NCBI GenBank assembly: GCA_027064305.1
Contig: JAMOPY010000023.1
Location: 16,569 to 48,568, forward strand
Reading direction: 5' to 3'
From: Methanobacteriota archaeon
GTDB taxonomy: Archaea; JAADCQ01; Methanopyri; Methanopyrales; Methanopyraceae
Length of the DNA: 32,000 nt
Below, in pieces: positions 6,957 to 24,040 of the stretch. Both the position numbers and the translations under genes were made by a program. Every line of letters starts with the position of its first letter. Within the stretch, counting starts at the first letter, position 1. The notes under the pieces were generated by a model, which did not search any database, was not told where the DNA came from, and was given only the letters and a program-made list of their open reading frames with translations.

Positions 6957-7813
6957 ACACCGTCGGCATCACCACCACCGTCACCGTGGCCGGGCTCACC
7001 GGGACCAAGCGGGTCACCGCCCGCGTGGACACCGGCGCCCGCTACGACGCCCTCGACTACACCCTCGCCGCCAAGATCGGGGCCGGCCCCGTCCTCGACG
7101 TCAAGAAGATCCGCTCCGCCACCGCCTCCCGCCTCAAGGCCGAGCGCCGACCCGTCGTTCCCCTCACCCTCAAGCTCGGCGACCGGCTCGTGCACACCCG
7201 CGCCACCCTCGCCGACCGCCGTGGGATGAGGTACCCGCTCATCATCGGCCGCGAGACCCTCCGCCGGGCCGGCGTCCTCGTCGACCCCACCCGACGATCC
7301 ACCGGGCGGGACGAGCGGGACCGCGACCCCGGGCGACGGGCCGCCAGCATGCTGCGCCTGCACACCGAGCTGCGCCGCGCGGTCCCGAAGGAGCGCGCCA
7401 TCACCCCAGCCATCCTGGCCCTACAGCACGGCGGCGCCTGGTCCTACCGGGACGAGGACGTCGTCTCCGTCGCCGTGCCCGTCCGGGAGGAGCGGGACGG
7501 GGTCGTGATCGAGCGACTGTACCTGCTCCTAGACCCGCGGATCGAGCGCTCCGAGGGCCGCATCGTCCGGCTGGAGAAGTGCGGCGAGGAGGACGTGCGA
7601 CGGGTGGCCGAGCGCCCCCGACTCCTGGAGGTCCGCCACGAGGGCGGGGCCACCGTGCGCATCGACCCCCACCGCCGCACCCTCCGCGTCACCCGGCTCG
7701 AGCCCGGCCGGATCACCTTCCGAGGCACCGCCGCGGCCAACGTCCACCACGAGCTCGCCCACCTCACGGAGGAGGAGCCCGGCCCCACCATCCTGGACTT
7801 CAAGATCGAGTGA
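6953..7813 (+). CDS. Retropepsin-like (RimB / 'ATP-dependent zinc protease' family) domain fused to an uncharacterised C-terminal domain containing HELAH
   Basis: The N-terminal VTARVDTGARYDAL...RRPVVPLTLKLGD...ATLADRRGMRYPLIIGRETLRRAGVLVDP matches the DTGA retropepsin-like family. The C-terminal 150 aa matches no recognised family but carries an HEXXH motif (VHHELAHL). ATGA coupling to the PIN gene. Confidence 0.65.
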   Translation: MNTVGITTTVTVAGLTGTKRVTARVDTGARYDALDYTLAAKIGAGPVLDVKKIRSATASRLKAERRPVVPLTLKLGDRLVHTRATLADRRGMRYPLIIGRETLRRAGVLVDPTRRSTGRDERDRDPGRRAASMLRLHTELRRAVPKERAITPAILALQHGGAWSYRDEDVVSVAVPVREERDGVVIERLYLLLDPRIERSEGRIVRLEKCGEEDVRRVAERPRLLEVRHEGGATVRIDPHRRTLRVTRLEPGRITFRGTAAANVHHELAHLTEEEPGPTILDFKIE

Positions 7814-9519: not shown

Positions 9520-9878
9520 CCTTGGCCGAGGGTGAGGGTGGGGACTACCACGTCGTGCTGGAGGCCGCGTGGATCGTGTACAACGTGGACAGCGAGGACG
9601 ATGCCATCAACATCGCCATCGCGGAGGCCGGCAAGCGCCTGAACCGCCACGGCCTGGACTACGTGGACATCGACGTGGGCTTCTTCGAGTGCCCGGAGTG
9701 CGGCGAGGAGATCGAGGGCGTGTGGATCGTGGCCAACACCGCGCTGGTCAGGCTCCTCCTCTCCATGCGCGTGTTCAACGCCGAGAACGAGGAGCACGCG
9801 ATCCGGATCGCGAAGTACGAGATCGGCCAGGCGCTGGAGGACGTGCCGCTCGAGGTCGTGGAGGTCACCCCGATCTAG
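9516..9878 (+). CDS. UPF0212 / DUF555 family protein with CPECG zinc knuckle
   Basis: [30 protein letters not shown]...ECPECGEE...[32 protein letters not shown] matches the archaeal UPF0212 pattern. GTGA overlap with dphB. Confidence 0.7.
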
Positions 9879-10990
9879 AGCCGGTACCGCGCGATCACGT
9901 GCCCCCAGATCAGGGACGACAGCAGGGTGAAGGTGGCCAGCGCGAAGGAGTTCATCGCCCGCGAGAACAGGAAGGCGCCGATCAGGGACTGGATGGAGAA
10001 CGCCATCAGGCACCCGAACAGCAGGGCCTCCCGCGCCGCCAGCTCGGAGGAGAACTCGTACCGCCGGCGCCCCACGTACTCGGACAGGCACCTCGACCCC
10101 ACGTACAGCGTGATCCCGACCCAGAGCGACAGCAGGAACGCGCCCACGTACCCGAAGTCGAACGCCCAGACGAACACGCCCGGGAGCATGTAGTCCAGCA
10201 GGTCCTTCCTCGCGACCAGCGCGCCGTGCAGCGTGGGCACGTTCAGGTTGAACATGACCAGGTACCCCACGGGCAGCGTCACGAACCCGTCCCCGAACCC
10301 GCACCAGTGGTAACCCGCCGGGAGAGACTTGGTGGAGTGGCCCACCAGGTACGCGTTCTTGCGGATGAAATCCAGGCCCGGCACGGTGTACTCCGCGAAC
10401 CGCTTCACCCGCAGCGCCGGGCTGAGCACCGGCTTGTTCAACACCCGAGCCGCCGCCTCCATCAGCAGCAGGAGCCCCACCCCGATCGCGGAGACCGCGG
10501 CGATCACCCGCCGACTCATCTGGCCCGCGCGCGCGGCGAGGGCCCCGATCCTCGTCCCCACCTCCAGCTGCCGCGAGATCAGGTACTCGGTCCCGATCCA
10601 GCAGAGCAGCCAGGAGAGCAGGTAATCCCGGTGCATCACGCCCCCGAAGATCCCGGTGAACAGCCAGAGCGTGTTCAGCACCGGCCGGGTTCGGCGGGCC
10701 GCCGAGATCCCGCGCGCCTCCAGCAGGCCGATCAGGTACCGGGCCGAGGCCCACGCGGCGAGGGTCAAGGGCCCGAACGGGTGCGTGAACTCGTGCCTGG
10801 GGAGGGGGAGGAACAGCGACAGCATGTCCACGAAGAACATCAGCATCAGGACGGCCAGGAGGAGGATGGACAGGGACAGCACGCGCTGGATGGTCACGCT
10901 GGAGTAGGCCAGCGTGAGCGGGACCACGGTGTGGGTCATCAGGAGGAAGTCCACCAGCGCCTCGCCCGTGTTGTGCGGCACCAGGTACAA
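9875..10990 (-). CDS. Polytopic membrane protein (about 8-10 TM) of unknown family, last gene of the cell-wall cluster
   Basis: Multiple long hydrophobic segments plus one large loop ([51 protein letters not shown]). The TTG start lies 1 nt after the upstream stop, behind GAGGGTGG. Confidence 0.65.
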
Positions 10991-12269: not shown

Positions 12270-12689
12270 TCAGCGCGGCAGTCCGTAATCCTCGGTCACC
12301 CGGACGACCACGACCCCCGACCTCTTGACCGTGATGTGGACCGACTTGATGGGCTTGATCTTGGTGCCCGGGATCACGCTACGCATGGCGTAGATCCGAG
12401 CCTTACGAATCGCCTCCTGCAGCGGGATGCGCTTACCGTCCGGGGTGATCAGGACCCCGTTCCGCACGACCGACCCCGGGCGCAGTCCCGCCGCCATTAC
12501 GTTGCTCCTCACCACCTCCTCGGGCAGGAAGTCGCACCCGACCACGTCCACGCCGATGATCCTGATCCCCTCCTGCTTGGGCAGCGGCCGGCTCGCCCAC
12601 GCCGTGTACTCGGACAGTCGGCCCAACGCGAACAGGAGCGCGCCCAGCAGCATGATGGCCAGGTTACGCCTCGACACCCTGACTATCAT
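12270..12689 (-). CDS. Bitopic membrane protein with FtsQ/DivIB-like POTRA domain (tentative)
   Basis: MIVRVSRRNLAIMLLGALLFALG gives a short N-terminus and one TM helix. IRIIGVDVVGCDFLPEEVVRSNVMAAGLRPGS...IKSVHITVKRSGVVVVRVTED resembles the FtsQ POTRA pattern (I.V.G...ls.eeV......g.......V.s..V.r..P..l.I.V.E). The ATG at 12689 follows GGGGGTGGTGGG. The longer track ORF start is Cys/Trp/Arg-rich read-through. Confidence 0.5.
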   Translation of the reverse strand: MIVRVSRRNLAIMLLGALLFALGRLSEYTAWASRPLPKQEGIRIIGVDVVGCDFLPEEVVRSNVMAAGLRPGSVVRNGVLITPDGKRIPLQEAIRKARIYAMRSVIPGTKIKPIKSVHITVKRSGVVVVRVTEDYGLPR

Positions 12690-14142
12690 CGCCCACCACC
12701 CCCATCTCCCGCAGGATCCTCCGGGCCGGCTCCATCCCCTGCGCCCCACCCAGCAGCACGACCGTGTCCTCATCACTGAGCTCCAGCGCCCGCTCCAACG
12801 CCTCCTCCAACCGCTCGAAGTGCTCCCAGCTCACCCCACCGCGCCGCAGCTCCTCCAGGAACGCCTCCCGCTCCTCCTCCCGCACCACGTTCGCCTCGTC
12901 CACCAGGCCCTTCGAATCCGTGACCAGGATGCGCACCTCCATCCCCTCCCGCTCCAGCTCCCGGGCCCCCTCCACCAGCGCCCGCGCGATCTCCCGGTTG
13001 ATCTCCGTCCCGCGCGACCCTCGGATGGCGAAGACGATCACGGCCCGGCCCTTACCCAGCCTCCTCAACGCTCGCACCGTCGCCAGGACGCCGTCCGGGT
13101 TGTGACAGAAGTCGTCCACGATCAGCGGGTCCTCCGACAACCGCTCGAACCGGCGCTTCAGCGGCCGGTACGTGCGCAGCCCCTCCGCGACGTCCTCCTC
13201 CCCCACGCCCAGTGCGTGGGCGGCCGCGGTCGCGGCGAGCGCGTTGTACAGGAAGTGATCCACCGGCAGCGGGAACTCCCGAACGGGGATCAACGGCTCG
13301 TCCTCCAGCAGGATCCACTCCTCCCCGTCCACCTCGCTGATCCGGGCGACGCCCTCCTCCCACCCGTACCACACCACGTCCGGCGCGAGCGAGGCCATCT
13401 TCGCCACGCGCTCATCGTCCGCGTTCAGCACCGCGACCCCGTCCTCCAGCGCCCGCACCACCCCGGAGACGGCCTCCGCCATCTCCTCCAGCGAGGAGAC
13501 CAGGTTCGTGTGATCCACGCCCACGTTCGTCACCACGGCCACCTCGCAGCCCAGCGCCCGGGCCATCCGGTACGCGTGATCCTCCATGACCCGGCCGGTC
13601 GGCAGGCCCTGCACCTCCGAGACCTCCACGCACAGGGCGTCCCGCGGCCGGGCCTCGCGGAGCTCCATCGCCACGACGGGATCGATGAGCGTGTTCTTCT
13701 CCGACCGGAAGTCCGTGTTGCAGTACACGTCCCGGCCCGCGACCCGCAGGATGTGCGCCAGCAGGTGGTTGGTGGTGGACTTCCCGTTCGTCCCCGTCAC
13801 GCACACGGTGACGGCGTCGGCCGCGTACCTCCGCTTCGCCAGCCGCAGCGCGTACTCGTTCGCCCGATCCACCTCCGTCAGCACGAGCGGCAGGTCGCGG
13901 CGCCGGCACTCCTCCCGGAGCCGCCCCCGGGGCTCCTCGGTGACCAGGCACGCCACGCCGCGCTCGTCCGCCAGCTCCGCCCCGCGCTCGTCGAGCCACC
14001 ACCGGATCACCACGTCCCCCTCGCCCGCCCGGCCGAGCGTGGAGAACCAGCCGCGGATCCTCCGCTCGGGGTCCCCGACGACCAGCCTCCCGTCCACCCG
14101 CTCGGCCAGCTCCCCCACGGTGAGGTCCAGCAGCGCGATCAC
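12664..14142 (-). CDS. Mur-ligase family peptide ligase (MurE/MurF-like; pseudomurein-type)
   Basis: P-loop VCVTGTNGKSTT, VVTNVGVDHT, VLNADD, HFLYNALAATAAA, RRFE and DDFCHNPDG give the full three-domain Mur ligase layout. GTGA overlap with the upstream MraY-like gene. Confidence 0.85.
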   Translation of the reverse strand: MIALLDLTVGELAERVDGRLVVGDPERRIRGWFSTLGRAGEGDVVIRWWLDERGAELADERGVACLVTEEPRGRLREECRRRDLPLVLTEVDRANEYALRLAKRRYAADAVTVCVTGTNGKSTTNHLLAHILRVAGRDVYCNTDFRSEKNTLIDPVVAMELREARPRDALCVEVSEVQGLPTGRVMEDHAYRMARALGCEVAVVTNVGVDHTNLVSSLEEMAEAVSGVVRALEDGVAVLNADDERVAKMASLAPDVVWYGWEEGVARISEVDGEEWILLEDEPLIPVREFPLPVDHFLYNALAATAAAHALGVGEEDVAEGLRTYRPLKRRFERLSEDPLIVDDFCHNPDGVLATVRALRRLGKGRAVIVFAIRGSRGTEINREIARALVEGARELEREGMEVRILVTDSKGLVDEANVVREEEREAFLEELRRGGVSWEHFERLEEALERALELSDEDTVVLLGGAQGMEPARRILREMGVVGDDSQGVEA

Positions 14143-15206
14143 CCCGCGAGCCAGAGGGCGATGCCCGCGCAGACGGCGCCGGCCATCCAGTGCAGCGCCA
14201 CCACGACCGGCTCGGGCAGGTCGTACTTGTACTGGAGGTGGTGATGCAGCGGCTCCACCGCGAGCTTGATCACGCCCGCCCGGTGCAGGAGGCTGATGAT
14301 CGTGGACCCGACGGGCACGCCCAGGGCGACGACGGCGGGCACCTCGATCTTGTAGTACAAGGCACCGGCCGCGTACGCGGCCCCCAGGAAGCAGCTGCCC
14401 GTGTCACCCATGAAGATCTTGGCCGGGTACCGGTTGTGGAACAGGAAGCCCAGGGAGGCGCCGGCGAGCGACGCGAAGAACGCGGCCCCGGGGAGCTGGT
14501 TGTGGACCAAGCACACCCCGGAGCACGCCAGAGAGGCGAGGAACAGCAGCCCCGCGGCCAGCCCGTCCATCCCGTCGATCAGGTTCACCGCGTTGGTGGC
14601 CCCGACCACGCCGAAGATCGCCAGCGGGTAGAACAGCCAGGACAGGTCGATCGCGCCGAGGTGCGGGAACCAGAGCCACGTGGCGGGCACGATGGGGAGC
14701 ACGAACAGGGCGGCCCCGGCCTGCAGCGCCAGCTTCTCCCGCTCGCTCAGCTCCTTCTTGACCGGGACCTCACCCACGATCTCGATCTTGTCCGGGGCCT
14801 CCCGCATCAGCCGCTTCAGGTCCCGCTTGGCCCGCTCCGTGGCCACGCGCGCCTCCTCACCGGGCTGCAGCACGAGCCGACCGATCCGGATCGGCTCATC
14901 GGAAACGTTCTTCACCACCTTCTGAAACTCCTTCACCTGCAGCCCGAGCAGGTCGTCCACCACGCCCAGCACCAGCATCGGGAGCGCCGAGGCGACCGGA
15001 GGGAGCGCCTGGATCGACACCAGGAGCGGCCCCGCGACCGTGCCCAGCAGGATCCCGAACCCTCCCATGATCGGCGTGCCGGCCTTGTGCGAGTGCTCCG
15101 TGACGATCGGACGGTCCACCACCCTGGCCTCCCGCATGTACCGGCGAAGCAGCCGCACGGTGACCCAGGACGTCACCGTGGAGATCGAGAACGTCTCCAC
15201 GATCAA
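14139..15206 (-). CDS. MraY-type polyprenyl-phosphate phospho-sugar/peptide transferase (GT4 family)
   Basis: DRPIVTEHSHKAGTPIMGG, LGVVDDLLGL, NAVNLIDGMDGLAAG, HNRYPAKIFMGDTGS and the MraY-specific EPLHHH motif are present. The TTG start follows GGGGAGGAG. Confidence 0.85.
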   Translation of the reverse strand: MIVETFSISTVTSWVTVRLLRRYMREARVVDRPIVTEHSHKAGTPIMGGFGILLGTVAGPLLVSIQALPPVASALPMLVLGVVDDLLGLQVKEFQKVVKNVSDEPIRIGRLVLQPGEEARVATERAKRDLKRLMREAPDKIEIVGEVPVKKELSEREKLALQAGAALFVLPIVPATWLWFPHLGAIDLSWLFYPLAIFGVVGATNAVNLIDGMDGLAAGLLFLASLACSGVCLVHNQLPGAAFFASLAGASLGFLFHNRYPAKIFMGDTGSCFLGAAYAAGALYYKIEVPAVVALGVPVGSTIISLLHRAGVIKLAVEPLHHHLQYKYDLPEPVVVALHWMAGAVCAGIALWLAG

Positions 15207-15222: not shown

Positions 15223-16362
15223 CTACAGGAACTTGCCGGCCTCCCTGATCCTCAACTCAAACTCCTTCTCCGCCAGCCGCACGTTCGCGCCCGCCGCCCG
15301 GAAGGCCGACCGCAGCCTCTCGAACGCCTCCTTAAACGATTCACCCCGGACGGTGATCCTCCCGGCCACGTCCATCCGGCCCCGGTACTCGTAGAACACG
15401 TGGTACGCTCCCCCGTCGAACCGCTCCCTAAGGGGCTCCCGACGGGACGCGTTCCACACCGGACACTCGATCGCGTGCCAGACCTTCCTGACCCGGGGCG
15501 GCCGCCAGCGCCCCACCACCATGTCCACGAGCTCCCGCAGCGGCCAGACTCCGGAACAGCCCGAGGTCATGTACCGCGTGCCGCTGGGCCGCGGGTTGAA
15601 CTCCAGGAACCAGAACTCATCCTCCCGCACCACCACGTCGAAGTCGACCGTCCCCTCCAGCCCCAACCGCTTCACGAGCCGAACCGCGCAGCGCTTGATC
15701 CCCCGCTCCACCGACCCGTCCAGCGGGGCCGGCGCCAGCCGCATCCGCTCGATCGGGTGATCCTCGTCCAGCGTCGAACCCTTGAACACCGGCACGAGCG
15801 GCACGACCTCCCCGTCCCAGGACAGCACCTCGATCGACACCTCCGCCCCCTCGACGAACTCCTCCACCAGCCGCCTCCCGTGCACCCGGGGCACCGACCG
15901 CTCGTACACGTTCACGTTGATCCCGGCCTGCGACCTCGGATCCTTCACCACGAGCGGCGGGCGCAGCCGGGGCCGCTCATCCTCCACCACCTCCCACTCC
16001 GGCGTCGGGATGTTCAGCTCCTCGAACGCCCGCTTCGCCCGGATCTTGTCCACCCCGGTCCGCGTCCCCTCCAACCCCGAGGCGGCGACGGGGATCCCCT
16101 CCGACTCCAGCCGCTCCTTCATTTCCGCCACCTCAAGCAGCGGATCGTCCACGCCGATGAGCGGGACCACCCCGTCCACCTCCCGCTCGAGCGCGATCCG
16201 CGCCGGGTGCTCCATGCCCCGGGGCACGAAGTGCACCTCGTCCGCCAGCTCCCAGTCCCAACTCTCCGGGTTCGACTCGGTCAGGATCCGGTACACCCCG
16301 GTGGACCCGGCGTACTCCGCCACGTCCCGGAACAGCCGGGCCCCCACGAACAGGACCCTCAA
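15223..16362 (-). CDS. ATP-grasp ligase (Ddl / CarB-like)
   Basis: KIRAKRAFEELNIPTPEW, PLVVKD, LVEEFVEGAEVSIEVL and WFLEFNPRPSGT show the ATP-grasp fold pattern. A TTG start at 16362 is inferred from the GGAGGAGGG SD and a TTGA overlap with the upstream stop. The track ORF start at 16593 is Gly/Arg read-through. Confidence 0.8.
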   Translation of the reverse strand: MRVLFVGARLFRDVAEYAGSTGVYRILTESNPESWDWELADEVHFVPRGMEHPARIALEREVDGVVPLIGVDDPLLEVAEMKERLESEGIPVAASGLEGTRTGVDKIRAKRAFEELNIPTPEWEVVEDERPRLRPPLVVKDPRSQAGINVNVYERSVPRVHGRRLVEEFVEGAEVSIEVLSWDGEVVPLVPVFKGSTLDEDHPIERMRLAPAPLDGSVERGIKRCAVRLVKRLGLEGTVDFDVVVREDEFWFLEFNPRPSGTRYMTSGCSGVWPLRELVDMVVGRWRPPRVRKVWHAIECPVWNASRREPLRERFDGGAYHVFYEYRGRMDVAGRITVRGESFKEAFERLRSAFRAAGANVRLAEKEFELRIREAGKFL

Positions 16363-17897
16363 CCCTCCTCCCCCAGCTCCTCCTCGAGCTCCCTCAGCAC
16401 GTCCTCCTTGAACTTCAGCGCCGCCTCCCCGAACACCACGATCACCTCGCACCCCGACTCCAACGCCGCCCGCAGCCCGTCCAGCACCTGCTCCCGGGAG
16501 GCGCCCAGCGTCCCCCGCTTCTCGAACCGCTCCGCGGCGCTCTCCGCCGCCACCACGTTGTCCGCCCCCACCTCCTCGAGCACCCGGTAGCACGCGTGCG
16601 AGGCCGCGATCACCCGGTCCGCGATCCGGGCCGCCCGCTCCAGGATCTCACGATCCCCCTCCGGGCCCAGCTCCGAGGCCACCGCGATGACCGCGCACAG
16701 GCGCCGGTCCGGGTACGCCTGCCTCAGGCACCGCAGGGTCGCCTCCACGCCCGCCGGGTTGTGACCGTAGTCGACGATCACCACCCGCTCCCCATCGTCC
16801 CACACGACGTCGAGCCGACCCTCCACCCCCTCGAACGAGCCGAGGGCCCGCGCCACCTCCTCCGGGTCCAGGTCCAGGAACTCGATGCAGACGGCCGCGG
16901 CCGCCACGGCGTTGTACACGTTATGCAGCCCCATCACGGGCAGGCCAACCTCGAACTCACCCTCCGGGCAGGCCAGCGTGAACCCGTCCAGAGAGACGTC
17001 CACGGCCAGGTAGTCCGGGGACGGCGTCTCCAACCCGCACTCGCACCGGAAGTCGCCCACCCACGGAAGGATCTCCCTCACCTCCGCCCGCCCACCGCAC
17101 CAGCACTCCTTCTCCACGGTCCCCACGGGCTCCGCCTCCACCCCGAAGTAAACGACCTCCCCCTCGAACCCCACCTCCTCCGGCGCGCCCACCACCAGCG
17201 GATCCTGCGCGTTCAGCACGGCCACCTCCACCGAGTCCGGCTCGAGCAGCTCGATCTCGCACCGCGCGTACGTCCGGAAGTCCCCGGCCTTGTTCAGGTG
17301 ATCCGGCGTGATGTTCGTCAGGCACGCGCACTCCACCTCCGCCCACCTCGCCGCCTCCAGGATCTCCCCCCGCTCCCCGAACGTCGCGATCTCCAGCACG
17401 CTCACGTCACCCGGCAACCGCGCCTGCAGCGGGGGCAGGTACCCCACGTTCCCCTGCATCCCCGGCAGCCCGTGATCCCGCACCTCCAGCCCCAGCTCCC
17501 GGCACACGTGCCGTATCATCGCCACGGTCGTCGTCTTCCCGTTCGTACCCCCCACGCCCACCACCGGCCGGGTGGGGGGAATCCGCTCGAGCACGTCCTC
17601 CACCTCGTACACCCGGCACCCGTACCGACGGGCCAGCCGGTACGGAGGTGACCCCTCCTCCAGGCTGGGCGGCGGGACCACCGCGTCCGCCCGCCGAAAC
17701 AGCCACTCCGGGTGGCCCCCCAGCACGACCTCCACGTTCGGGTACTCCAGCAGCGGGTCCAGCAGCTCGCACTCCTCCTCGTCCTTCACGTCCGAGGCGA
17801 TCACGTGGTAGTCCCGCTCCGCGAGCACCCGGGCCACCAGGTTGCACACGGGCCCGCACACGCCGATCACCAGCACCGTGCGCCCCTGCACGCGCAT
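16359..17897 (-). CDS. Mur-ligase family peptide ligase (MurD/MurC-like N-terminal Rossmann domain; Cys4 insertion)
   Basis: RTVLVIGVCGPVCNLVARVL (MurD-like domain 1), VGVGGTNGKTTT, LTNITPDHL, VLNAQD, GLHNVYNAVAAAA and VDYGHNPAG are present. The ATG at 17897 follows GAGGGGG. The upstream 332 aa of the 844-aa track ORF is out-of-frame read-through of the PP-loop gene. Confidence 0.85.
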   Translation of the reverse strand: MRVQGRTVLVIGVCGPVCNLVARVLAERDYHVIASDVKDEEECELLDPLLEYPNVEVVLGGHPEWLFRRADAVVPPPSLEEGSPPYRLARRYGCRVYEVEDVLERIPPTRPVVGVGGTNGKTTTVAMIRHVCRELGLEVRDHGLPGMQGNVGYLPPLQARLPGDVSVLEIATFGERGEILEAARWAEVECACLTNITPDHLNKAGDFRTYARCEIELLEPDSVEVAVLNAQDPLVVGAPEEVGFEGEVVYFGVEAEPVGTVEKECWCGGRAEVREILPWVGDFRCECGLETPSPDYLAVDVSLDGFTLACPEGEFEVGLPVMGLHNVYNAVAAAAVCIEFLDLDPEEVARALGSFEGVEGRLDVVWDDGERVVIVDYGHNPAGVEATLRCLRQAYPDRRLCAVIAVASELGPEGDREILERAARIADRVIAASHACYRVLEEVGADNVVAAESAAERFEKRGTLGASREQVLDGLRAALESGCEVIVVFGEAALKFKEDVLRELEEELGEEG

Positions 17898-17902
17898 CCC
17901 CC

Positions 17903-18922
17903 TCAGACCCGCGTCCCCGGGATCCTCCGACCGTACTCCCGCAACAGTTCCCGCATCAACGCCCGCGTCCCCTCCAGGAGCCTCCGGGCCGTCCCCTCGT
18001 CCCGCTCCACGGCGAGCCGGGGCAGGTGCTCGTACCCTAAATCGTCGACCCGATCGTCGATCTCGGAGTACTCGTAAAGCACCGCGTGCAGCTGCGCGAA
18101 CCGCTCCGTCCGCACGATCCGGTTCAACGTCCCGCTCAGGTACGACCGCAGCGCCCGCTCCAGGAACATCAGCAGCCGGTACGTGAGGTCGCGCACGATC
18201 TCTTCCTCGTCCCTCGGACCCTCCGGCACCCCACCCTCGAACACCCGGTGCAGCTCCAATCCCAGCCGCTCCTCCACCTCTCCCGCGTCCCACTCCGGGG
18301 TCTCCGTCTCGATCAGGTACTCCAGGCACGCCCGCGGCGAGGCCACTCGCTCCACCATCAGCGAGCAGGCGCGGCCCGTGAGCGGGTTGTACCCGACCCG
18401 CTCGATGAACCGGTGCACCCCGTAGGGTCGGATGGGGCACGTGTACCCCTCGTCGAACCAGCCCAGGCCCGAGACGATCTCGCCCACGTCCTCCCACGTC
18501 CACCGGCGCAGCGCCGGGTACCGGACCATCGTCACCCCGGGCGGGTACGGGTGCGCCACCCGCCGCCCGTACTTCCCCTTCAGCTCGTGGCCCGTGAGGA
18601 CCGTGAGCAGCCCCAGTCGCTTGGCCCGCAGGCAGGCGGCGGTCAGCACCGTCCGGGCGCACTTGGTGCAGATGGGCAGGCCGCGGCGCAGGGCGCGGCG
18701 GAACCACCCCCGCAGGCGCACCCGAACGAGCTCGTGCCTCAGCCCCAGCCGCTCCGCGCACCGACGGGCGTTCTCCAGGCACGTCCCGTCCAGGAACTCG
18801 TGCACGACCGTGACCGCCGCCTCCACCCGCCAGCGCTCGGACGCGTGCAGGGCCGTGGCCACGCTGTCCCGACCGCCGGAGAGGGCCACGCACGCCGGGT
18901 TGCTGGGATCAGTCGTGCGCAT
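17903..18922 (-). CDS. PP-loop (SGGxDS) ATP pyrophosphatase superfamily protein with helical C-terminal domain
   Basis: ACVALSGGRDSVATALHA is a canonical PP-loop. CTKCARTVLTAACLRAKRLGLLTVLTGHE resembles the adenine-nucleotide alpha-hydrolase core. The C-terminal roughly 150 aa is acidic, helical and unassigned. The ATG lies 14 nt inside the end of gltX. Confidence 0.7.
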   Translation of the reverse strand: MRTTDPSNPACVALSGGRDSVATALHASERWRVEAAVTVVHEFLDGTCLENARRCAERLGLRHELVRVRLRGWFRRALRRGLPICTKCARTVLTAACLRAKRLGLLTVLTGHELKGKYGRRVAHPYPPGVTMVRYPALRRWTWEDVGEIVSGLGWFDEGYTCPIRPYGVHRFIERVGYNPLTGRACSLMVERVASPRACLEYLIETETPEWDAGEVEERLGLELHRVFEGGVPEGPRDEEEIVRDLTYRLLMFLERALRSYLSGTLNRIVRTERFAQLHAVLYEYSEIDDRVDDLGYEHLPRLAVERDEGTARRLLEGTRALMRELLREYGRRIPGTRV

Positions 18923-20627
18923 ACACGGCCCTCACACCGCTCGGTCGACACTCCTCGATCCGGGCGAAGTACAGCCGCTCGAACTGCACGGTGCGTCCCG
19001 GCTCCTCCCGCTCCACGTTCGCCTCCACGTAGCCCTCGTCCACCGACCCGTCCGGCCGTAGCACCCGGCACGGGATCGCCTGGTCCGTCGGCACCCAGTG
19101 CACGATCCGGGCCCCCTCACGCCGCGCGGCCCGGTAGTCCTCCCCCTCGTACCGGCCCCGCACGACGCCCTCACCCACCTCCTCGACCCTCACGTTCACC
19201 GCGTTCATCAGCCGGATCAGCTCACCCTCCTCCAGCGCCTCCCCGTCCTCCCGATCCAGCCAGACCCGGCAGCCGCCGTCCTCCGGGTGCAGCACGAGCG
19301 CCCGCTCGCCCCGGTCCTCGTCCGGGTGCAGCGGCAGCGTGGCCGCGAACGGCTCCTCCAGGCCCTCGATCCACAGCTCCACCGGGTCCCGGACGAGGAA
19401 GTACCGGTTGGACTTCGGATCGATCAGGCGCCGGTTGCGCGCGTACAGCTGCTCCCAGCTGAAGGTCGCGTCCACCTCCGTCAGCCCGATCTCCAGGATC
19501 GTCTCCCGGAGCGCCTCGGGCTCGATCCCCCGCCGCCGCAGCGCGCGCAGCGTCGCCGTCCGCACGTCGTCCCAGCCCGTGAGCTCGCCGGACTCGATCC
19601 CCTCCCGGATCCTGGACGTGCTCAGCACGGTCCCCTCCACCTTCAGGATCCCGTAGTGCACGTACTCCGGCGGCTCCCAGTCCAGGTGCCGGAACACGAA
19701 CTCCTGCCGGCGCGTGTTCGACTCGTGATCCTTCCCGCGCAGGACGTGCGTGACCTCCATGAAGTGATCGTCCACGGCCACGGCGAAGTTCATTGTCGGC
19801 CAGACGAGGTACCGGTCGCCCACCATCGGGTGCTCCCGCTCCACGATCCGGAACGCGACCCACTCCCGCGCGGCCGGGTCCGGGTGGTCCACCCGCGTCT
19901 TCACCCGAACGACCGCCTCCCCCTCCGAGAACGCCCCGTCCAGCATCTCCTCCCACAGCTCCAGGTTCTCCTCCGGATCCCGGGACCGGCACGGGCAGGC
20001 CTGGCCCCGATCCCGCAGCCGCCGAAACTCGTCCGCGTCGCACGTGCAGACGTACGCCCCGCCCCGCTCCAGCAGCTCCTCCGCCACCCGGTAGTACAGC
20101 TCCATCCGGTTCGACTGCACGTACCGCTCGTCCACCCGCACGCCCAGCCACTCCAGGTCCTCCTCGATCATGTCGTACGCCTCCGGGTCCACCCGCCGCG
20201 GGTCCGTGTCCTCGAAGCGCAGGATCAGCGCGCCGTCGTACCGGCGGGCGTACTCGTCGTTGAGCACCGCCGCCCGCGCGTGACCCAGGTGCAGCGGGCC
20301 CGACGGGTTGGGGGCGAACCGCAGCCGAACCTCGCCCTCCCGGGCGCCGGGCAGCGGCTTCAGGCCGCCCTCCTCCTCCGACCGCTCCTCCTCCACCCCG
20401 CCCAGCTCCTCCAGCTCCCGCCGGATCTCCTCCAGGGACATCCGGTTGACCTCCTCGACCACCTCCCGGACGAGCCGGAGCACCTCCTTGGCCCGATCCC
20501 GGTACTCCTCGTGCTCCCGCATCACCTTCTTCATGACCGCGTTCGGGTTCGCCCGGCCGTCGTACTTGGCCGCGTTCTCCAGCGCGTACCGGCGGATCAC
20601 CTCCCTCAACTCCTCCAGCTCGCTCAC
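18909..20627 (-). CDS. gltX: Glutamyl-tRNA synthetase (archaeal type)
   Basis: RFAPNPSGPLHLGHARAAVLN (HIGH), LRFEDTDP, HVLRGKDH and GTVLSTSRIR are present. GTG at 20627 was chosen because GGGGAGG lies 7 nt upstream. The 45-aa N-terminal extension in the track is Pro/Gly/Arg-rich. Confidence 0.9.
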   Translation of the reverse strand: MSELEELREVIRRYALENAAKYDGRANPNAVMKKVMREHEEYRDRAKEVLRLVREVVEEVNRMSLEEIRRELEELGGVEEERSEEEGGLKPLPGAREGEVRLRFAPNPSGPLHLGHARAAVLNDEYARRYDGALILRFEDTDPRRVDPEAYDMIEEDLEWLGVRVDERYVQSNRMELYYRVAEELLERGGAYVCTCDADEFRRLRDRGQACPCRSRDPEENLELWEEMLDGAFSEGEAVVRVKTRVDHPDPAAREWVAFRIVEREHPMVGDRYLVWPTMNFAVAVDDHFMEVTHVLRGKDHESNTRRQEFVFRHLDWEPPEYVHYGILKVEGTVLSTSRIREGIESGELTGWDDVRTATLRALRRRGIEPEALRETILEIGLTEVDATFSWEQLYARNRRLIDPKSNRYFLVRDPVELWIEGLEEPFAATLPLHPDEDRGERALVLHPEDGGCRVWLDREDGEALEEGELIRLMNAVNVRVEEVGEGVVRGRYEGEDYRAARREGARIVHWVPTDQAIPCRVLRPDGSVDEGYVEANVEREEPGRTVQFERLYFARIEECRPSGVRAVYAHD

Positions 20628-20843
20628 GGGCACCCTCCCCGTCGCCTCCCTCTCCGGACAAGCAGCGGTGATCGTGAGGGACGGGGGTGTCCCCCGCCCT
20701 CCGGTCCCGGGCTCATTGAACGGCGACGGCCGCCTCACCCGGGGGACCCAGACGGGGGTCATCCTTTTGGAGGATCTGACCCCCGTCCCGCCGCCCCGGG
20801 CGGGGTTTAAGTAGTTCCCCGGAGCCCGGCCCGCGGAGAAAGG

Positions 20844-20851
20844 TTTTTATA
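20844..20851 (+). promoter_or_regulatory. TATA box of the tRNA-Lys promoter
   Basis: AAAGGTTTTTATAC. The TTTTTATA element lies about 31-38 nt upstream of the mature tRNA 5' end, in otherwise very GC-rich DNA. Confidence 0.55.
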
Positions 20852-20881
20852 CGACGCGGCGCCCCCGCGTGAACGGACGCC

Positions 20882-20959
20882 GGGCCGGCAGCTCAGTCTG
20901 GCTAGAGCGCGGGACTTTTAATCCCGTGGTCCCGGGTTCAAATCCCGGCCGGCCCACCA
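20882..20959 (+). tRNA. tRNA-Lys: tRNA-Lys (anticodon UUU), genomically encoded CCA, C at position 8
   Basis: Hand-folded cloverleaf. Acceptor stem GGGCCGG/CCGGCCC, D stem GCTC/GAGC, anticodon stem CGGGA/TCCCG with loop CTTTTAA, variable loop TGGTC, T stem CCGGG/CCCGG with loop TTCAAAT, discriminator A, then CCA. Confidence 0.9.
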
Positions 20960-21010: not shown

Positions 21011-22789
21011 CTACATCCGCTCGAGCGCCGGGACGCCCAGGAGGTTCATGACGTTCTCCATCACGATGGTGAACGCCTCCACCAGTTTCAGTCGCGCCTT
21101 CCGCACCTCCTCGTCCTCCGCGTGCAGTACCGGCACCTCCTCGTAGAACGTGTGGAACGCCCGGGCGAGCTCGTAGGCGTACTCCGCCAGGATGTCCGGA
21201 CGCCGCTTCCGCACGCACTGGGCCACCTGCCGCGGGAACATGGACATCCGGAAGACCAGCTCGAACGAGTGATCGTCGTCCAGGTGAGCCGCGTCGAACC
21301 GCTGCACGTCCTCGTCCGCCCGCCGGAGGATCGACCGGGCGCGCGCGTAGGCGTACTGGATGAACGGACCGCCCCGCCGGAAGTCCAGCGCCTCGTCCCA
21401 GTCGAACTCGATCGGCTTGTTCGGGCTCACGCGGGCGATGGCGAACCGGACCGCCCCGATGGCCACGTTCTCCGCGATCTCCTCCCGCTCCTCCTCGTCC
21501 AGATCCTCCGCCACGCCCGCCTCCCGCATCTTCTCCAGCGCGCGCCGCTTGGCCTCGTCCAGGAACTCATCCAGGGTCACGTACCGACCCTTCCGCGTCG
21601 ACATCGAGCCCTCCGGCAGGTGAATGAACTCGTAGAAGATCACGTCCACGCGGTCCGGATCCGCGTCCAGCAGGTCGAGCGCCGCCTTCAGCTGCTGCAC
21701 GGCGAGCTTGTGATCCGCCCCGAGCACGTCGATAACGAACGCGGCCCGCCCGAGCTTCCACAGGTGGTACGCGATGTCCCGCGTCGTGTACAGGGTCGTC
21801 CCGTCGCTCCGCGTGAGCACGAGCTCCTTGTCGATCCCGTAGTCCTCCAGATCGAGGACCACGGCCCCGTCGTCGCGCTCCTCCGCCGCGCCCATCTCCA
21901 CGAGCTTCTCGACGATCTCGACCGCATCCTCCACGAACTCGCTCTCGTACACGAACCGGTCGTGGGCCACGCGGAGCCGCTCCAGGGTCTCGATGTGCCC
22001 CCTCAGGCACTCCTCCACCACGGTCTGAAACGCCTCCGCGATGCGCTCCGCCCGGGACTCCTCCTCCAGCAGATACCGCTCGTAGGAGCGCAGGAACCGC
22101 TCCACCACCTCCTCCAGCTCGGGATCCTCCTCGATCTCCCTCGCCGCCTCCGCGTACAGCTCGCCGAAGAACTCGTCCGGCTTCCTACCCTCCGGGACCT
22201 CCGGCCGCCCCTCCTTGATGTACTTCCACGCGAGCATCGCGATCTGCTTGCCCATGTCGTTCACGTAGTACTGGACCTCCACGTCGTAGTTCGTGAACAC
22301 CATGCACCGGGCCAGGATGTCCCCGATGATCGCGTTCCGGCCGTGGCCAATGTGCAGCGGGCCGTTCGGGTTCGCGCTCGTGTGCTCCAGGATCGCGGGC
22401 CGACCCATCCCCAGGTCCAGCGACCCGTACTCCTCCCCGTAGTAGAAGACGGACCGGAGGACGAGGGCGGCGTACTGAGGCCGGTTCAGCCGGATGTTGA
22501 TGTACCCGGGCCCCTCCACCCGGGCCTCGTCCACGAGCACGACCTCGTCCAGGTCGGACTCCTCCAGGATCGTCTCCGCGACCCGCCGGGGCTCCTCGCC
22601 CACCTCCTTCGCCAGCGAGAGGGCGACGGGCGTGGCCACGTCCGCGTCCTCCACCGGCGGCTCCGGATCCACCGGTACCTCCACGGGCTCGTCCACGTCG
22701 TACGCCGAGGAGACGGCGTCCCGGATCGAGGTCCGGATCGTCCGGACGAGGAGCGAGTACGGATCGTGCGGTGGCGCCTCCTCCGCCAA
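21011..22789 (-). CDS. argS: Arginyl-tRNA synthetase
   Basis: HTSANPNGPLHIGHGRNAIIGD (HIGH), GADHKLAVQQLKAAL, EGSMSTRKGRYV and the DALR-type anticodon-binding C-terminus are present. The TTG start lies 15 nt after the aRF1 stop. Confidence 0.9.
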   Translation of the reverse strand: MAEEAPPHDPYSLLVRTIRTSIRDAVSSAYDVDEPVEVPVDPEPPVEDADVATPVALSLAKEVGEEPRRVAETILEESDLDEVVLVDEARVEGPGYINIRLNRPQYAALVLRSVFYYGEEYGSLDLGMGRPAILEHTSANPNGPLHIGHGRNAIIGDILARCMVFTNYDVEVQYYVNDMGKQIAMLAWKYIKEGRPEVPEGRKPDEFFGELYAEAAREIEEDPELEEVVERFLRSYERYLLEEESRAERIAEAFQTVVEECLRGHIETLERLRVAHDRFVYESEFVEDAVEIVEKLVEMGAAEERDDGAVVLDLEDYGIDKELVLTRSDGTTLYTTRDIAYHLWKLGRAAFVIDVLGADHKLAVQQLKAALDLLDADPDRVDVIFYEFIHLPEGSMSTRKGRYVTLDEFLDEAKRRALEKMREAGVAEDLDEEEREEIAENVAIGAVRFAIARVSPNKPIEFDWDEALDFRRGGPFIQYAYARARSILRRADEDVQRFDAAHLDDDHSFELVFRMSMFPRQVAQCVRKRRPDILAEYAYELARAFHTFYEEVPVLHAEDEEVRKARLKLVEAFTIVMENVMNLLGVPALERM

Positions 22790-22804: not shown

Positions 22805-24040
22805 TTACCCCGGTCGGAACCTCAGCAGCGCACCCAGGCCGCCGAACGCCTGGTGGAACTGCGCGCCCTCCTCCGTCTCGGTTGAAATTATCTCCACCCG
22901 AGCCCCCGTCCGCTCCGCCAGCTCCAGGTAGTAGTCCACGAGCTCCTTCACGTCCTCCACCTCCAGCTCGGCCTCACCGCACTCCGGGCACTCCCCGGCC
23001 CGCTCCCTCGCCTCCTCCTTGCTCCGAACCGTGACCACCTCCTCGTGACCGCACTCCGGGCACCGGAGCACCGCCTTGTACCCCTCCAGCTCCTCCGAGA
23101 TCAGCAGCGTCTCCACGGCCCCCATCCGCAGCATCCTCTCCACCTCATCCTCCCCGTACGCCGCCAGATCCCCGTTGACCGCCTCCTCCATGAACCGCCG
23201 CACCAGCCGCTTCTCCCGGACCAGCTCCGCCTCCTTGAGCGCGTCCTCCGCCTTGTTCAGCGCCTCCCGGATCCCCGACTCGTCCGTGTTCCCCACATCC
23301 ACCACGGCGATGACCTTCTCCTTCAGGTCCTTGGGCAGGTAGTCCCCCTCCAGGAACTCCTCCTTCGTCGGGCCCGGACCGCCCACGATGATCCCCTTCA
23401 GGTTCTCCACCTCCTCGAAAACCTCCCGCGCGGCCTCACCCACCTCCTGGTAGAACTCGTGCGCCGCGTGCTCGATCAGCCGATCGAAGCGCCGCTGCGA
23501 CTGCCCGCCCGCCTTGTGCTTACCCGGCACATCCGACTTAAGCCGCTTCTTCACCTCAACCCGCTTACCCTTGACCAGCCCGATCGTCGCCTCCCGACGG
23601 TCCATGACCAGCACGCCGTACACATCCTTATCCTCGAGACACTCCTTCAGGGGCTCCAGGTAAAACCTGGAATCGCACCGGTAAATGAACCGATCCACCG
23701 GCTCGGGCGGCTCGATTAGCTCCGCCACCATCTTCTCCTTCGTGCCTTCTTTAACCGTACCGACCAACACCACCAACCCGTTCTCCGGGGTCTCACCCAC
23801 GGTCTTGAGCCTTTGAATAACCACCTCAATTGCGGACTGAACGTTCTTCCGCGTCCTCTTACTCTTGATATTACTCGCCTGAGAGTACTCCTCCCTCATC
23901 ATTGCGATCACATCGCTCAACCGCTTCTCCGGCGGAATGTATATCGTGATCAGCTCCGTACCCTCGCCCTCCAGGCTCTCCAACCGCTCTAGCATTCTTT
24001 TGAACTTGTACCGTTCCACGCTCTCGGAGGTCGCCTCCAA
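22805..24040 (-). CDS. prf1: Peptide chain release factor aRF1
   Basis: The NIKS motif (QASNIKSKRTRKNV), GGQ motif (KHKAGGQSQRRF) and GTELITIYIPP are present. The C-terminal domain carries a CPECG...CPECG zinc-ribbon mini-domain. The TTG start follows GGGGGAG. Confidence 0.95.
   Translation of the reverse strand: MEATSESVERYKFKRMLERLESLEGEGTELITIYIPPEKRLSDVIAMMREEYSQASNIKSKRTRKNVQSAIEVVIQRLKTVGETPENGLVVLVGTVKEGTKEKMVAELIEPPEPVDRFIYRCDSRFYLEPLKECLEDKDVYGVLVMDRREATIGLVKGKRVEVKKRLKSDVPGKHKAGGQSQRRFDRLIEHAAHEFYQEVGEAAREVFEEVENLKGIIVGGPGPTKEEFLEGDYLPKDLKEKVIAVVDVGNTDESGIREALNKAEDALKEAELVREKRLVRRFMEEAVNGDLAAYGEDEVERMLRMGAVETLLISEELEGYKAVLRCPECGHEEVVTVRSKEEARERAGECPECGEAELEVEDVKELVDYYLELAERTGARVEIISTETEEGAQFHQAFGGLGALLRFRPG

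Follow-up and report, generated by a model that had tools for sequence, protein, structure and literature searches.

What is a PP-loop enzyme doing between the glutamyl-tRNA synthetase gene gltX and a Mur-type peptide ligase in Methanopyrus, and does this position make it a part of the machinery that builds the pseudomurein cell wall? We addressed this question in a 32,000-nucleotide stretch of DNA from a member of the Methanopyraceae (assembly GCA_027064305.1, contig JAMOPY010000023.1, positions 16,569 to 48,568), referred to here as the window. The pseudomurein pathway is biochemically largely unassigned, and the PP-loop gene sits within the Methanopyrus version of its main cluster, yet two published comparative-genomics papers on pseudomurein leave the gene unmentioned. 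An earlier note, made from the letters of the window, had placed the gene at the head of a Mur-ligase operon and had proposed that its product acts on a stem-peptide carboxylate or activates an amino acid for pseudomurein precursors. Our analysis assigns the protein, on its motifs and predicted fold, to a class of PP-loop enzymes with three conserved cysteines, shows that the gene is not a core pseudomurein gene, and tentatively favors an inherited thiolation function. The gene and the parts of its product are located as follows.

17903-18922, minus strand: gene of the PP-loop protein with three conserved cysteines (tri-Cys), 339 residues, ATG start; based on the open reading frame (ORF), orthologues, the ratio of nonsynonymous to synonymous substitution rates (dN/dS) and an AlphaFold2 (AF2) model
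18863-18880, minus strand: PP-loop ATP-binding motif S15-G-G-R-D-S20, read directly; S15, G16, G17, D19 and S20 at least 90% conserved
18659-18670, minus strand: C85-T-K-C88, the CxxC pair of the CxxC...C motif, invariant in an alignment of divergent sequences (A2) and at least 90% conserved in a 64-sequence alignment
18437-18439, minus strand: C162, the distal cysteine of the same motif; no variation in alignment A2, conservation of 90% or more in the 64-sequence alignment
17906-18238, minus strand: C-terminal helical extension, residues ~229-339, modeled as helices with a predicted local distance difference test score (pLDDT) of ~96; no family match

The gene is real and constrained. It ends in a TGA codon at 17903-17905 and is under purifying selection, with dN/dS values of 0.29 against an orthologue at 94% identity and 0.17 against one at 89%. 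A homologue search recovered eight orthologue clusters, all from Methanopyrus and spanning 52-100% identity.

Judged by its sequence and model, the product is a PP-loop (adenine-nucleotide alpha-hydrolase, AANH) enzyme of the CxxC...C class. As in the PP-loop superfamily at large, an SGGxDS motif opens a Rossmann-like alpha/beta/alpha domain in the AF2 model, and as in the tri-Cys sulfur insertases, a CxxC pair and a distal cysteine (C85, C88 and C162) follow the PP-loop. In 64 aligned relatives, only S15, G16, G17, D19, S20, C85, C88, G111 and C162 are conserved at 90% or more. The earlier note was thus right to see an adenylating-type enzyme with an SGGRDS loop near the N-terminus and a CxxC-containing core, although the loop is preceded by 14 residues and not by 13. 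Placement by profile hidden Markov models, which the note had recommended, yielded affinities and no membership. No Pfam or NCBIfam model reaches its threshold on the protein, and the weak matches (DUF7411, QueC, Asn_synthase, LarE and others) are confined to the first ~70 residues. The top NCBIfam match, TIGR00268 LarE, scores 21.6 bits against a cut-off of 150 and the NcsA model 11.8 against a cut-off of 500, and none of the curated models NF049949 TtuA, NF047749 NcsA, NF007972 TtcA and TIGR00268 LarE is passed. The affinities run to the tri-Cys class and to the N-acetyl sugar amidotransferases. The family profile matched the [4Fe-4S] LarE of M. maripaludis (8cnz) with an E-value of 2e-17, aligning both the CxxC and the third cysteine, and it matched Pyrococcus TtuA (PhTtuA, 1e-13) and M. 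maripaludis NcsA (MmNcsA, 5e-13) with the CxxC aligned. A profile built from Methanopyrus sequences only still ranked TtuA first (E 0.019), with the PP-loop, CxxC and TGH aligned. Pairwise profile comparison with hhalign gave E 2e-20 over residues 8-170 against LarE-like proteins and E 7e-22 over residues 7-227 against amidotransferase-like proteins.

The structural model agrees with this placement. Built from the 64-sequence alignment, it reached a pLDDT of 94.6 and a predicted template-modeling score (pTM) of 0.91 with alternating strands and helices, and it replaced an earlier model from eight sequences (pLDDT 67) that had no significant Foldseek match. In Foldseek, the best match was TtuA bearing its Fe-S cluster (5b4f, E 6e-5), followed by LarE and MnmA, at template-modeling (TM) scores to the sulfur-inserting AANH enzymes of only 0.35-0.48. 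A QatC-like role in a defense system was considered and rejected, as PADLOC gave no match.

The C-terminal part sets the protein apart. Residues 191-339 are helical in the AF2 model (pLDDT ~96) and carry a net charge of -9 (isoelectric point, pI, 5.0), in keeping with the unassigned acidic helical domain of about 150 residues described in the earlier note. Residues 191-228 are common to wider relatives by hhalign, and only residues ~229-339 are unique to a small family confined to Methanopyrus and two metagenomic archaeal lineages (P0009 and P0152). The core (residues 1-190) has a net charge of +15 and a pI of 10.2, and all orthologues combine a basic catalytic core (net +5 to +15) with an acidic C-terminal part. 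The soluble neighbors tested, namely the two Mur ligases, ArgRS and eRF1, have pI values of 4.5-5.0. Proteins of the window use arginine almost wholly in place of lysine (4 K and 50 R in the PP-loop protein). The G+C content of the window is 70%, and the published value for M. kandleri AV19, ~61-62%, is clearly below this; the window probably derives from another Methanopyrus lineage.

When 1.84 billion representatives were searched exhaustively with an HMMER profile, the same architecture appeared beyond Methanopyrus in only two proteins, P0009 and P0022, which lie on archaeal contigs of 34% and 47% G+C. P0009 is cut off by its contig end, and P0022 has a near-identical variant, P0152. A second, word-indexed search, based on the divergent alignment A2, yielded hardly anything beyond the Methanopyrus set already known, and scanning GTDB genomes and JGI metagenomes for the sequence pattern gave Methanopyri only. 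The start called for P0152 (L012 ~9870-10945; variant P0022 at L006 6453-7397) is too far downstream: an intact in-frame SGGIDS lies upstream of it, giving a protein of ~374 residues that is Zn-ribbon-less like the Methanopyrus protein, and several transposase genes flank the locus. Two candidates were set aside. A ThiF-family gene beside P0009 is convergent and lies on a 1-kb contig, which is too weak to use, and P0015 (1510 residues, six matched stretches) proved to be a false positive, a surface protein with DUF7507 repeats.

The nearest family is considerably larger. It unites a Zn ribbon, a PP-loop and the CxxC...C motif (P0012, P0177, P0184 and ~180 further clusters), aligns with the Methanopyrus protein by hhalign over residues 7-226 (E 7e-38, 32% identity) and is widespread in Methanothermococcus, Methanococcus, Methanocaldococcus, Thermococcus, Pyrococcus and Palaeococcus. 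Examples are the Thermococcus nautili 'TilS-like type 2' protein WP_285519436 (P0012) and a 'putative ATP binding related protein' of M. maripaludis C5 (P0177). Both groups share the PP-loop, a CxxC at +70, TGHE, the third cysteine and an R-G...AL...PE...LGL tail. Members of the larger family alone carry an N-terminal CxxC...CxxC ribbon of 55-90 residues and stop at a point equivalent to residue ~226 of the Methanopyrus protein, which lacks the ribbon and adds ~110 helical C-terminal residues. The Methanopyrus protein belongs to a Zn-ribbon-less, C-terminally extended subfamily of tri-Cys PP-loop enzymes that is covered by no curated model. Naming within the Zn-ribbon family is inconsistent, ranging over QueC, TilS/MesJ, PAPS reductase, DUF7411, Dph6-related and 'PP-loop domain protein', and the name given by PGAP is often '7-cyano-7-deazaguanine synthase'.

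In Methanothermococcus and M. maripaludis, an ORF of 75-76 residues directly follows the related PP-loop gene (L014 8971-9198, L025 6873-7103); it is not present after the related gene of Methanocaldococcus vulcanius. This ORF resembles the KEOPS/t6A subunit Pcc1 only weakly and below threshold (E 0.086), and was rejected as a ThiS/TtuB-like sulfur carrier because it has no C-terminal GG. The Methanothermococcus relative also lies near GluRS, which we consider a coincidence, since this proximity is absent in M. maripaludis, Methanocaldococcus vulcanius and Thermococcus.

Is the gene, then, part of the pseudomurein pathway? The composition of cluster A and the core pseudomurein gene sets (clusters A and B) have been published (PMC11915815), and the PP-loop protein is absent from the published pseudomurein gene sets, including the clusters of that study. 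A core pseudomurein gene would be expected in both Methanopyrales and Methanobacteriales and not elsewhere. Orthologues of the PP-loop gene, in contrast, were found only in Methanopyri, and its relatives occur in Thermococcales and Methanococcales, which are without pseudomurein. Neither the exhaustive profile search nor the pattern scans detected an orthologue in Methanobacteriales, the other pseudomurein order. No relative lies beside Mur ligases at the loci that were read, which comprise Thermococcus, Methanothermococcus, M. maripaludis, Methanocaldococcus, a further archaeon and P0152. The note had also named a finding that would overturn a wall function, namely orthology to a tRNA-modification enzyme equally common in archaea without pseudomurein and never linked to Mur ligases. 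Half of this was found: the nearest family is common in Thermococcales and Methanococcales and never beside Mur ligases at those loci, but it has no known tRNA function. Because relatives occur in archaea without pseudomurein, it is the gene order of Methanopyrus, and nothing beyond it, that links the gene to the cell wall. The PP-loop gene is not a core pseudomurein gene, and a role in pseudomurein is possible, supported by adjacency only.

This gene order deserves a closer look. Along the minus strand, the genes follow each other as eRF1, ArgRS, GluRS, PP-loop gene, Mur ligase, ATP-grasp/CPS-like gene, MraY-like glycosyltransferase family 4 gene and second Mur ligase. Junctions along the part that starts with gltX are overlaps or gaps of at most 16 nucleotides.

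22805-24040, minus strand: eRF1, from the reading of the gene order
21011-22789, minus strand: argS (ArgRS), with tRNA-synt_1d, DALR_1 and Arg_tRNA_synt_N
20882-20959, plus strand: tRNA-Lys(UUU), divergent from gltX, between argS and gltX; ARAGORN and Rfam, 67.9 bits
18909-20633, minus strand: gltX (GluRS), likely start GTG 20633; Pfam tRNA-synt_1c, E 5e-83
16359-17897, minus strand: Mur-type peptide ligase, with Mur_ligase_M and Mur_ligase_C
15223-16362, minus strand: ATP-grasp/CPS-like protein of pseudomurein cluster A, with ATP-grasp_3 and CPSase_L_D2
14139-15206, minus strand: MraY-like glycosyltransferase family 4; PF00953, E 2e-34
12664-14142, minus strand: second Mur-type ligase, with Mur_ligase_M and Mur_ligase_C

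Two of these genes have mechanically called ORFs that are probably or clearly too long. For GluRS, the call of 617 residues from ATG 20762 (18909-20762) probably overshoots orthologues of 571-572 residues, and their lengths together with the upstream GGAGAGGGAGG point to a start at GTG 20633. For the ATP-grasp gene, the mechanical ORF of 456 residues (15223-16593) is too long and the most likely start is TTG 16362 (379 residues, beginning 'LRVLFVG'), so that the stop of the Mur ligase and this TTG form a 4-nucleotide overlap, TTGA. The tRNA-Lys(UUU) between argS and gltX is one of three tRNAs that normally carry 2-thiouridine at position 34.

The PP-loop gene is tightly packed on both sides. 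Its ATG is embedded in the 3' end of gltX, which reads ...GTG TAT GCG CAC GAC TGA on the minus strand, giving a 14-nucleotide overlap, and its TGA is separated from the ATG of the Mur ligase by GGGGG, a gap of 5 nucleotides. Both junctions and the physical coupling to gltX and the Mur-type ligase are as the earlier note had described them. The gene does not head the operon, however. An AT-rich scan of this 70% G+C DNA found promoter-like elements near the string only upstream of gltX, at 20806-20854, and none between 15341 and 20806; the only strong TATA-like element of the region is at 20839-20854, beside the divergent tRNA-Lys(UUU). Since these elements lie upstream of gltX, it is gltX and not the PP-loop gene that would head the transcription unit. 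From its sequence, gltX thus appears to lead the gene string, with the PP-loop gene second and the string continuing into pseudomurein cluster A.

Comparison among Methanopyrus lineages shows what is fixed in this arrangement. The order from eRF1 through the second Mur ligase is retained in every lineage sampled, down to 52% identity, and the gltX-led arrangement running into cluster A is Methanopyrus-specific. The overlap between gltX and the PP-loop gene is retained in all lineages compared (14, 29 and 8 nucleotides), whereas the junction with the Mur ligase varies between a 5-nucleotide gap, a 4-nucleotide overlap (locus L001) and a 52-nucleotide gap. In the lineage at 89% identity (L010 ~7021-7040), the ATG of the Mur ligase is ATA, so that its start must be a GTG two codons downstream. 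Because this start codon has changed, we regard the PP-loop/Mur junction as less fixed than the gltX/PP-loop overlap. The whole region of ~20 kb is collinear among Methanopyrus lineages, however, and conserved adjacency therefore says little on function.

Which reaction might the protein catalyze? In LarE of Thermotoga, the CxxC-C motif (C92, C95 and C172) binds a [4Fe-4S] cluster needed for sulfur transfer (PMC9283937). Such a cluster is also found in TtuA, TtcA and NcsA (PMC9283937, PMC8584467) and in the peptide thioamide synthetase CtaC (PMC6772006), and the adenylated substrate is attacked by sulfide bound to the open iron of this cluster (PMC9283937, PMC8584467, PMC6772006). By analogy, we propose that ATP would bind at S15GGRDS20 and that a carbonyl oxygen of the substrate, in an amide, lactam or carboxyl group, would be adenylated with release of pyrophosphate, both steps having precedent in the family. 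The activated oxygen could then be displaced by a nucleophile presented at the site formed by C85, C88 and C162. The likeliest occupant of this site is a [4Fe-4S] cluster with sulfide on its free iron, in which case the reaction would yield a thio-compound, like those of TtuA, NcsA, Thermotoga LarE and CtaC. Alternatively, ammonia might serve as the nucleophile in the second half-reaction, as in the N-acetyl sugar amidotransferases. Sulfur appears to be the most likely replacement for the oxygen. In evolutionary terms, the protein would be the Methanopyrus version of the Thermococcales/Methanococcales family, having lost the N-terminal Zn ribbon and gained the ~110-residue helical C-terminal extension, with residues 191-339 as a whole acidic.

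We tentatively favor, at somewhat less than an even chance, a function inherited from the relatives that live without pseudomurein and not a dedicated pseudomurein step: thiolation of an anionic, nucleotide-type substrate, possibly tRNA. Context and charge point this way. The immediate upstream neighbors are genes of translation (eRF1, ArgRS, tRNA-Lys(UUU) and GluRS), the core is basic while the soluble neighbors tested are acidic, and the overlap with the translation gene gltX is kept in all lineages while the Mur-ligase junction varies. In addition, orphan tRNA thiolations, s2C17 and s2U33, have been reported from P. furiosus and M. maripaludis (PMC7668247), and a literature search found no enzyme for s2C17. 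The hosts of these modifications match the host orders of the Zn-ribbon family, which we treat as a lead only.

Several points weigh against tRNA thiolation. The family and its nearest relatives are biochemically uncharacterized. The Zn ribbon, thought to aid tRNA binding in enzymes of the TtuA/NcsA type (PMC8584467), is absent here, and the domain added at the C-terminus is acidic. Homology to the amidotransferases (residues 7-227) reaches further than homology to LarE (residues 8-170). Two proteins that PGAP names N-acetyl sugar amidotransferases disagree in their tri-Cys residues: the CxxC and the third cysteine are both missing from the Massilia protein and both present in the Rhodobacteraceae protein (L023 1441-2610 and L024 1432-2637), each adjoining hisH/hisF-like genes. 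Because one such amidotransferase has the three cysteines and another does not, the motif cannot settle the choice between sulfur and nitrogen chemistry. Finally, distant relatives occur in small-molecule and peptide contexts. One lies in a cluster of nonribosomal peptide synthetase (NRPS) and radical S-adenosylmethionine (radical-SAM) genes, and many profile matches are PP-loop domains inside NRPSs. Among these matches, P0024, P0028 and P0034 have PP-loop/CxxC domains embedded in multi-module NRPSs, and others stand alone beside NRPS, radical-SAM/SPASM and methyltransferase genes (including L019 7001-7909). These NRPS-linked domains suggest an undescribed backbone tailoring, possibly the formation of thioamides or amidines.

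The alternative that survives best, though we consider it unlikely, is a pseudomurein tailoring step specific to Methanopyrus, in which the enzyme would activate an amide carbonyl of a wall precursor to give an amidine, as the amidotransferases do, or a thioamide, as CtaC does. Its target could be the N-acetyl group of N-acetylgalactosamine (GalNAc) or N-acetyl-talosaminuronic acid, or a peptide bond. Methanopyrus pseudomurein, according to Kurr et al. in 1991, is reportedly chemically distinct, with ornithine and without N-acetylglucosamine (GlcNAc), and hardly any protein outside Methanopyrus has the Zn-ribbon-less, C-terminally extended architecture. The tight coupling to the Mur ligase (a 5-nucleotide gap here, a 4-nucleotide overlap in L001) and the membership in one promoter-less gene string with cluster A genes also fit, but adjacency is weak evidence in a genome region that is collinear over ~20 kb. 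The hhalign homology to the N-acetyl sugar amidotransferases speaks for tailoring, as does the longest structural alignment, to the Legionella N-acetyl sugar amidotransferase 8wex (306 columns, TM 0.47), yet the hallmarks of these enzymes (tetracysteine Zn motif, TIGR03573 score and hisH/hisF-like partners) are missing. There is archaeal precedent in MMP1081, the M. maripaludis enzyme that attaches an acetamidino group to a uronic-acid sugar (PMC2952790), and CtaC sets a precedent for peptide thioamidation (PMC6772006). Against these stand the failure to find an orthologue in Methanobacteriales, the other pseudomurein order, the absence of the gene from the pseudomurein-specific gene groups of PMC11915815, the lack of Mur ligases beside relatives at the loci read, and the fact that no amidine or thioamide has been reported in pseudomurein. 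The concrete form of this idea, that an amidine or thioamide has gone undetected in Methanopyrus pseudomurein or in its nucleotide-linked precursors, installed on an N-acetyl group (GalNAc or N-acetyl-talosaminuronic acid) or a peptide bond by this protein as an Fe-S PP-loop enzyme, seems to us improbable. If true, the protein would stand as the first AANH enzyme to tailor a cell wall in archaea, and the modification would be a Methanopyrus-specific feature invisible to classical acid-hydrolysis analyses.

We think it decidedly improbable that the protein is a LarE-like or other small-molecule sulfur insertase, making a thiocarboxylate or a thio-cofactor such as the nickel-pincer nucleotide and unrelated to both neighbors. 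LarE does provide the best profile match in the PDB (8cnz) and the top NCBIfam match (TIGR00268, though far below its cut-off), and a LarA gene is found 8 kb away from P0152, the only homologue of the same architecture that has genomic context. However, transposases lie between LarA and P0152, homology to LarE ends at residue 170, and M. maripaludis possesses LarE (8cnz) alongside P0177, a distinct protein of the related family. Least probable is the proposal of the earlier note, that the enzyme adenylates or amidates a stem-peptide carboxylate in the manner of AsnB/LtsA or MurT/GatD, or activates glutamate or another amino acid for the N-alpha-UDP-glutamate route in coupling with GluRS: PP-loop enzymes can adenylate carboxylates, as LarE does (PMC9283937), and the gene lies between gltX and a Mur ligase, but Asn_synthase (PF00733) scores 13.5 bits against a cut-off of 21 over the PP-loop region only (residues 8-69), the 14 residues before the PP-loop leave no room for the absent N-terminal glutaminase domain, no glutaminase partner gene lies within 10 kb, MurT is not a PP-loop protein, the MobA-like nucleotidyltransferase of cluster B is already the published candidate for nucleotide activation (PMC11915815), and the phyletic pattern does not track pseudomurein.

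Recognizing that the PP-loop gene is not a core pseudomurein gene avoids a tempting mis-annotation, while the gene stays a candidate for a lineage-specific wall modification. The analysis also exposes a three-Cys PP-loop family of Thermococcales and Methanococcales that is uncharacterized and widely mis-named QueC. Its host lineages are reported to have tRNA thiolations with no enzyme assigned to them, which makes the family a candidate for genetic tests in tractable hosts.

Set against known enzymes, the Methanopyrus protein resembles the asparagine-synthase-type peptidoglycan amidotransferases AsnB1 and LtsA only in the generic logic of PP-loop adenylation, and MurT of the MurT/GatD pair has a Mur-ligase fold and not a PP-loop fold. 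The N-acetyl sugar amidotransferases (TIGR03573: WbuX, WbpG, PseA and AglX/MMP1081; 8wex) are homologous over residues 7-227 at 17% identity. Their mark is a tetracysteine Zn motif, CXXCXn[GN]XCXXC, before the PP-loop (PMC10607449), which is absent from the Methanopyrus protein and present in the nearest family and in the L023 and L024 amidotransferases. The Methanopyrus protein gives no match to TIGR03573 even at E-values up to 1 (cut-off 203 bits), its relatives score 49-165 bits, and the hisH/hisF-like genes that flank the L023 and L024 amidotransferases are not found within 10 kb at the Methanopyrus loci. The N- and C-terminal zinc fingers of the TtuA/NcsA subgroup are likewise absent, with 14 residues before the PP-loop and no further CxxC pairs, and the region after the third cysteine and the C-terminal domain are unrelated to those of TtuA, NcsA, LarE and CtaC. 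With these same [4Fe-4S] enzymes, TtuA (5b4f, 5mkp), NcsA (6scy), LarE (T. maritima; M. maripaludis 8cnz) and CtaC, the protein nevertheless has in common the PP-loop, a Rossmann-like core and a similarly spaced CxxC...C motif.

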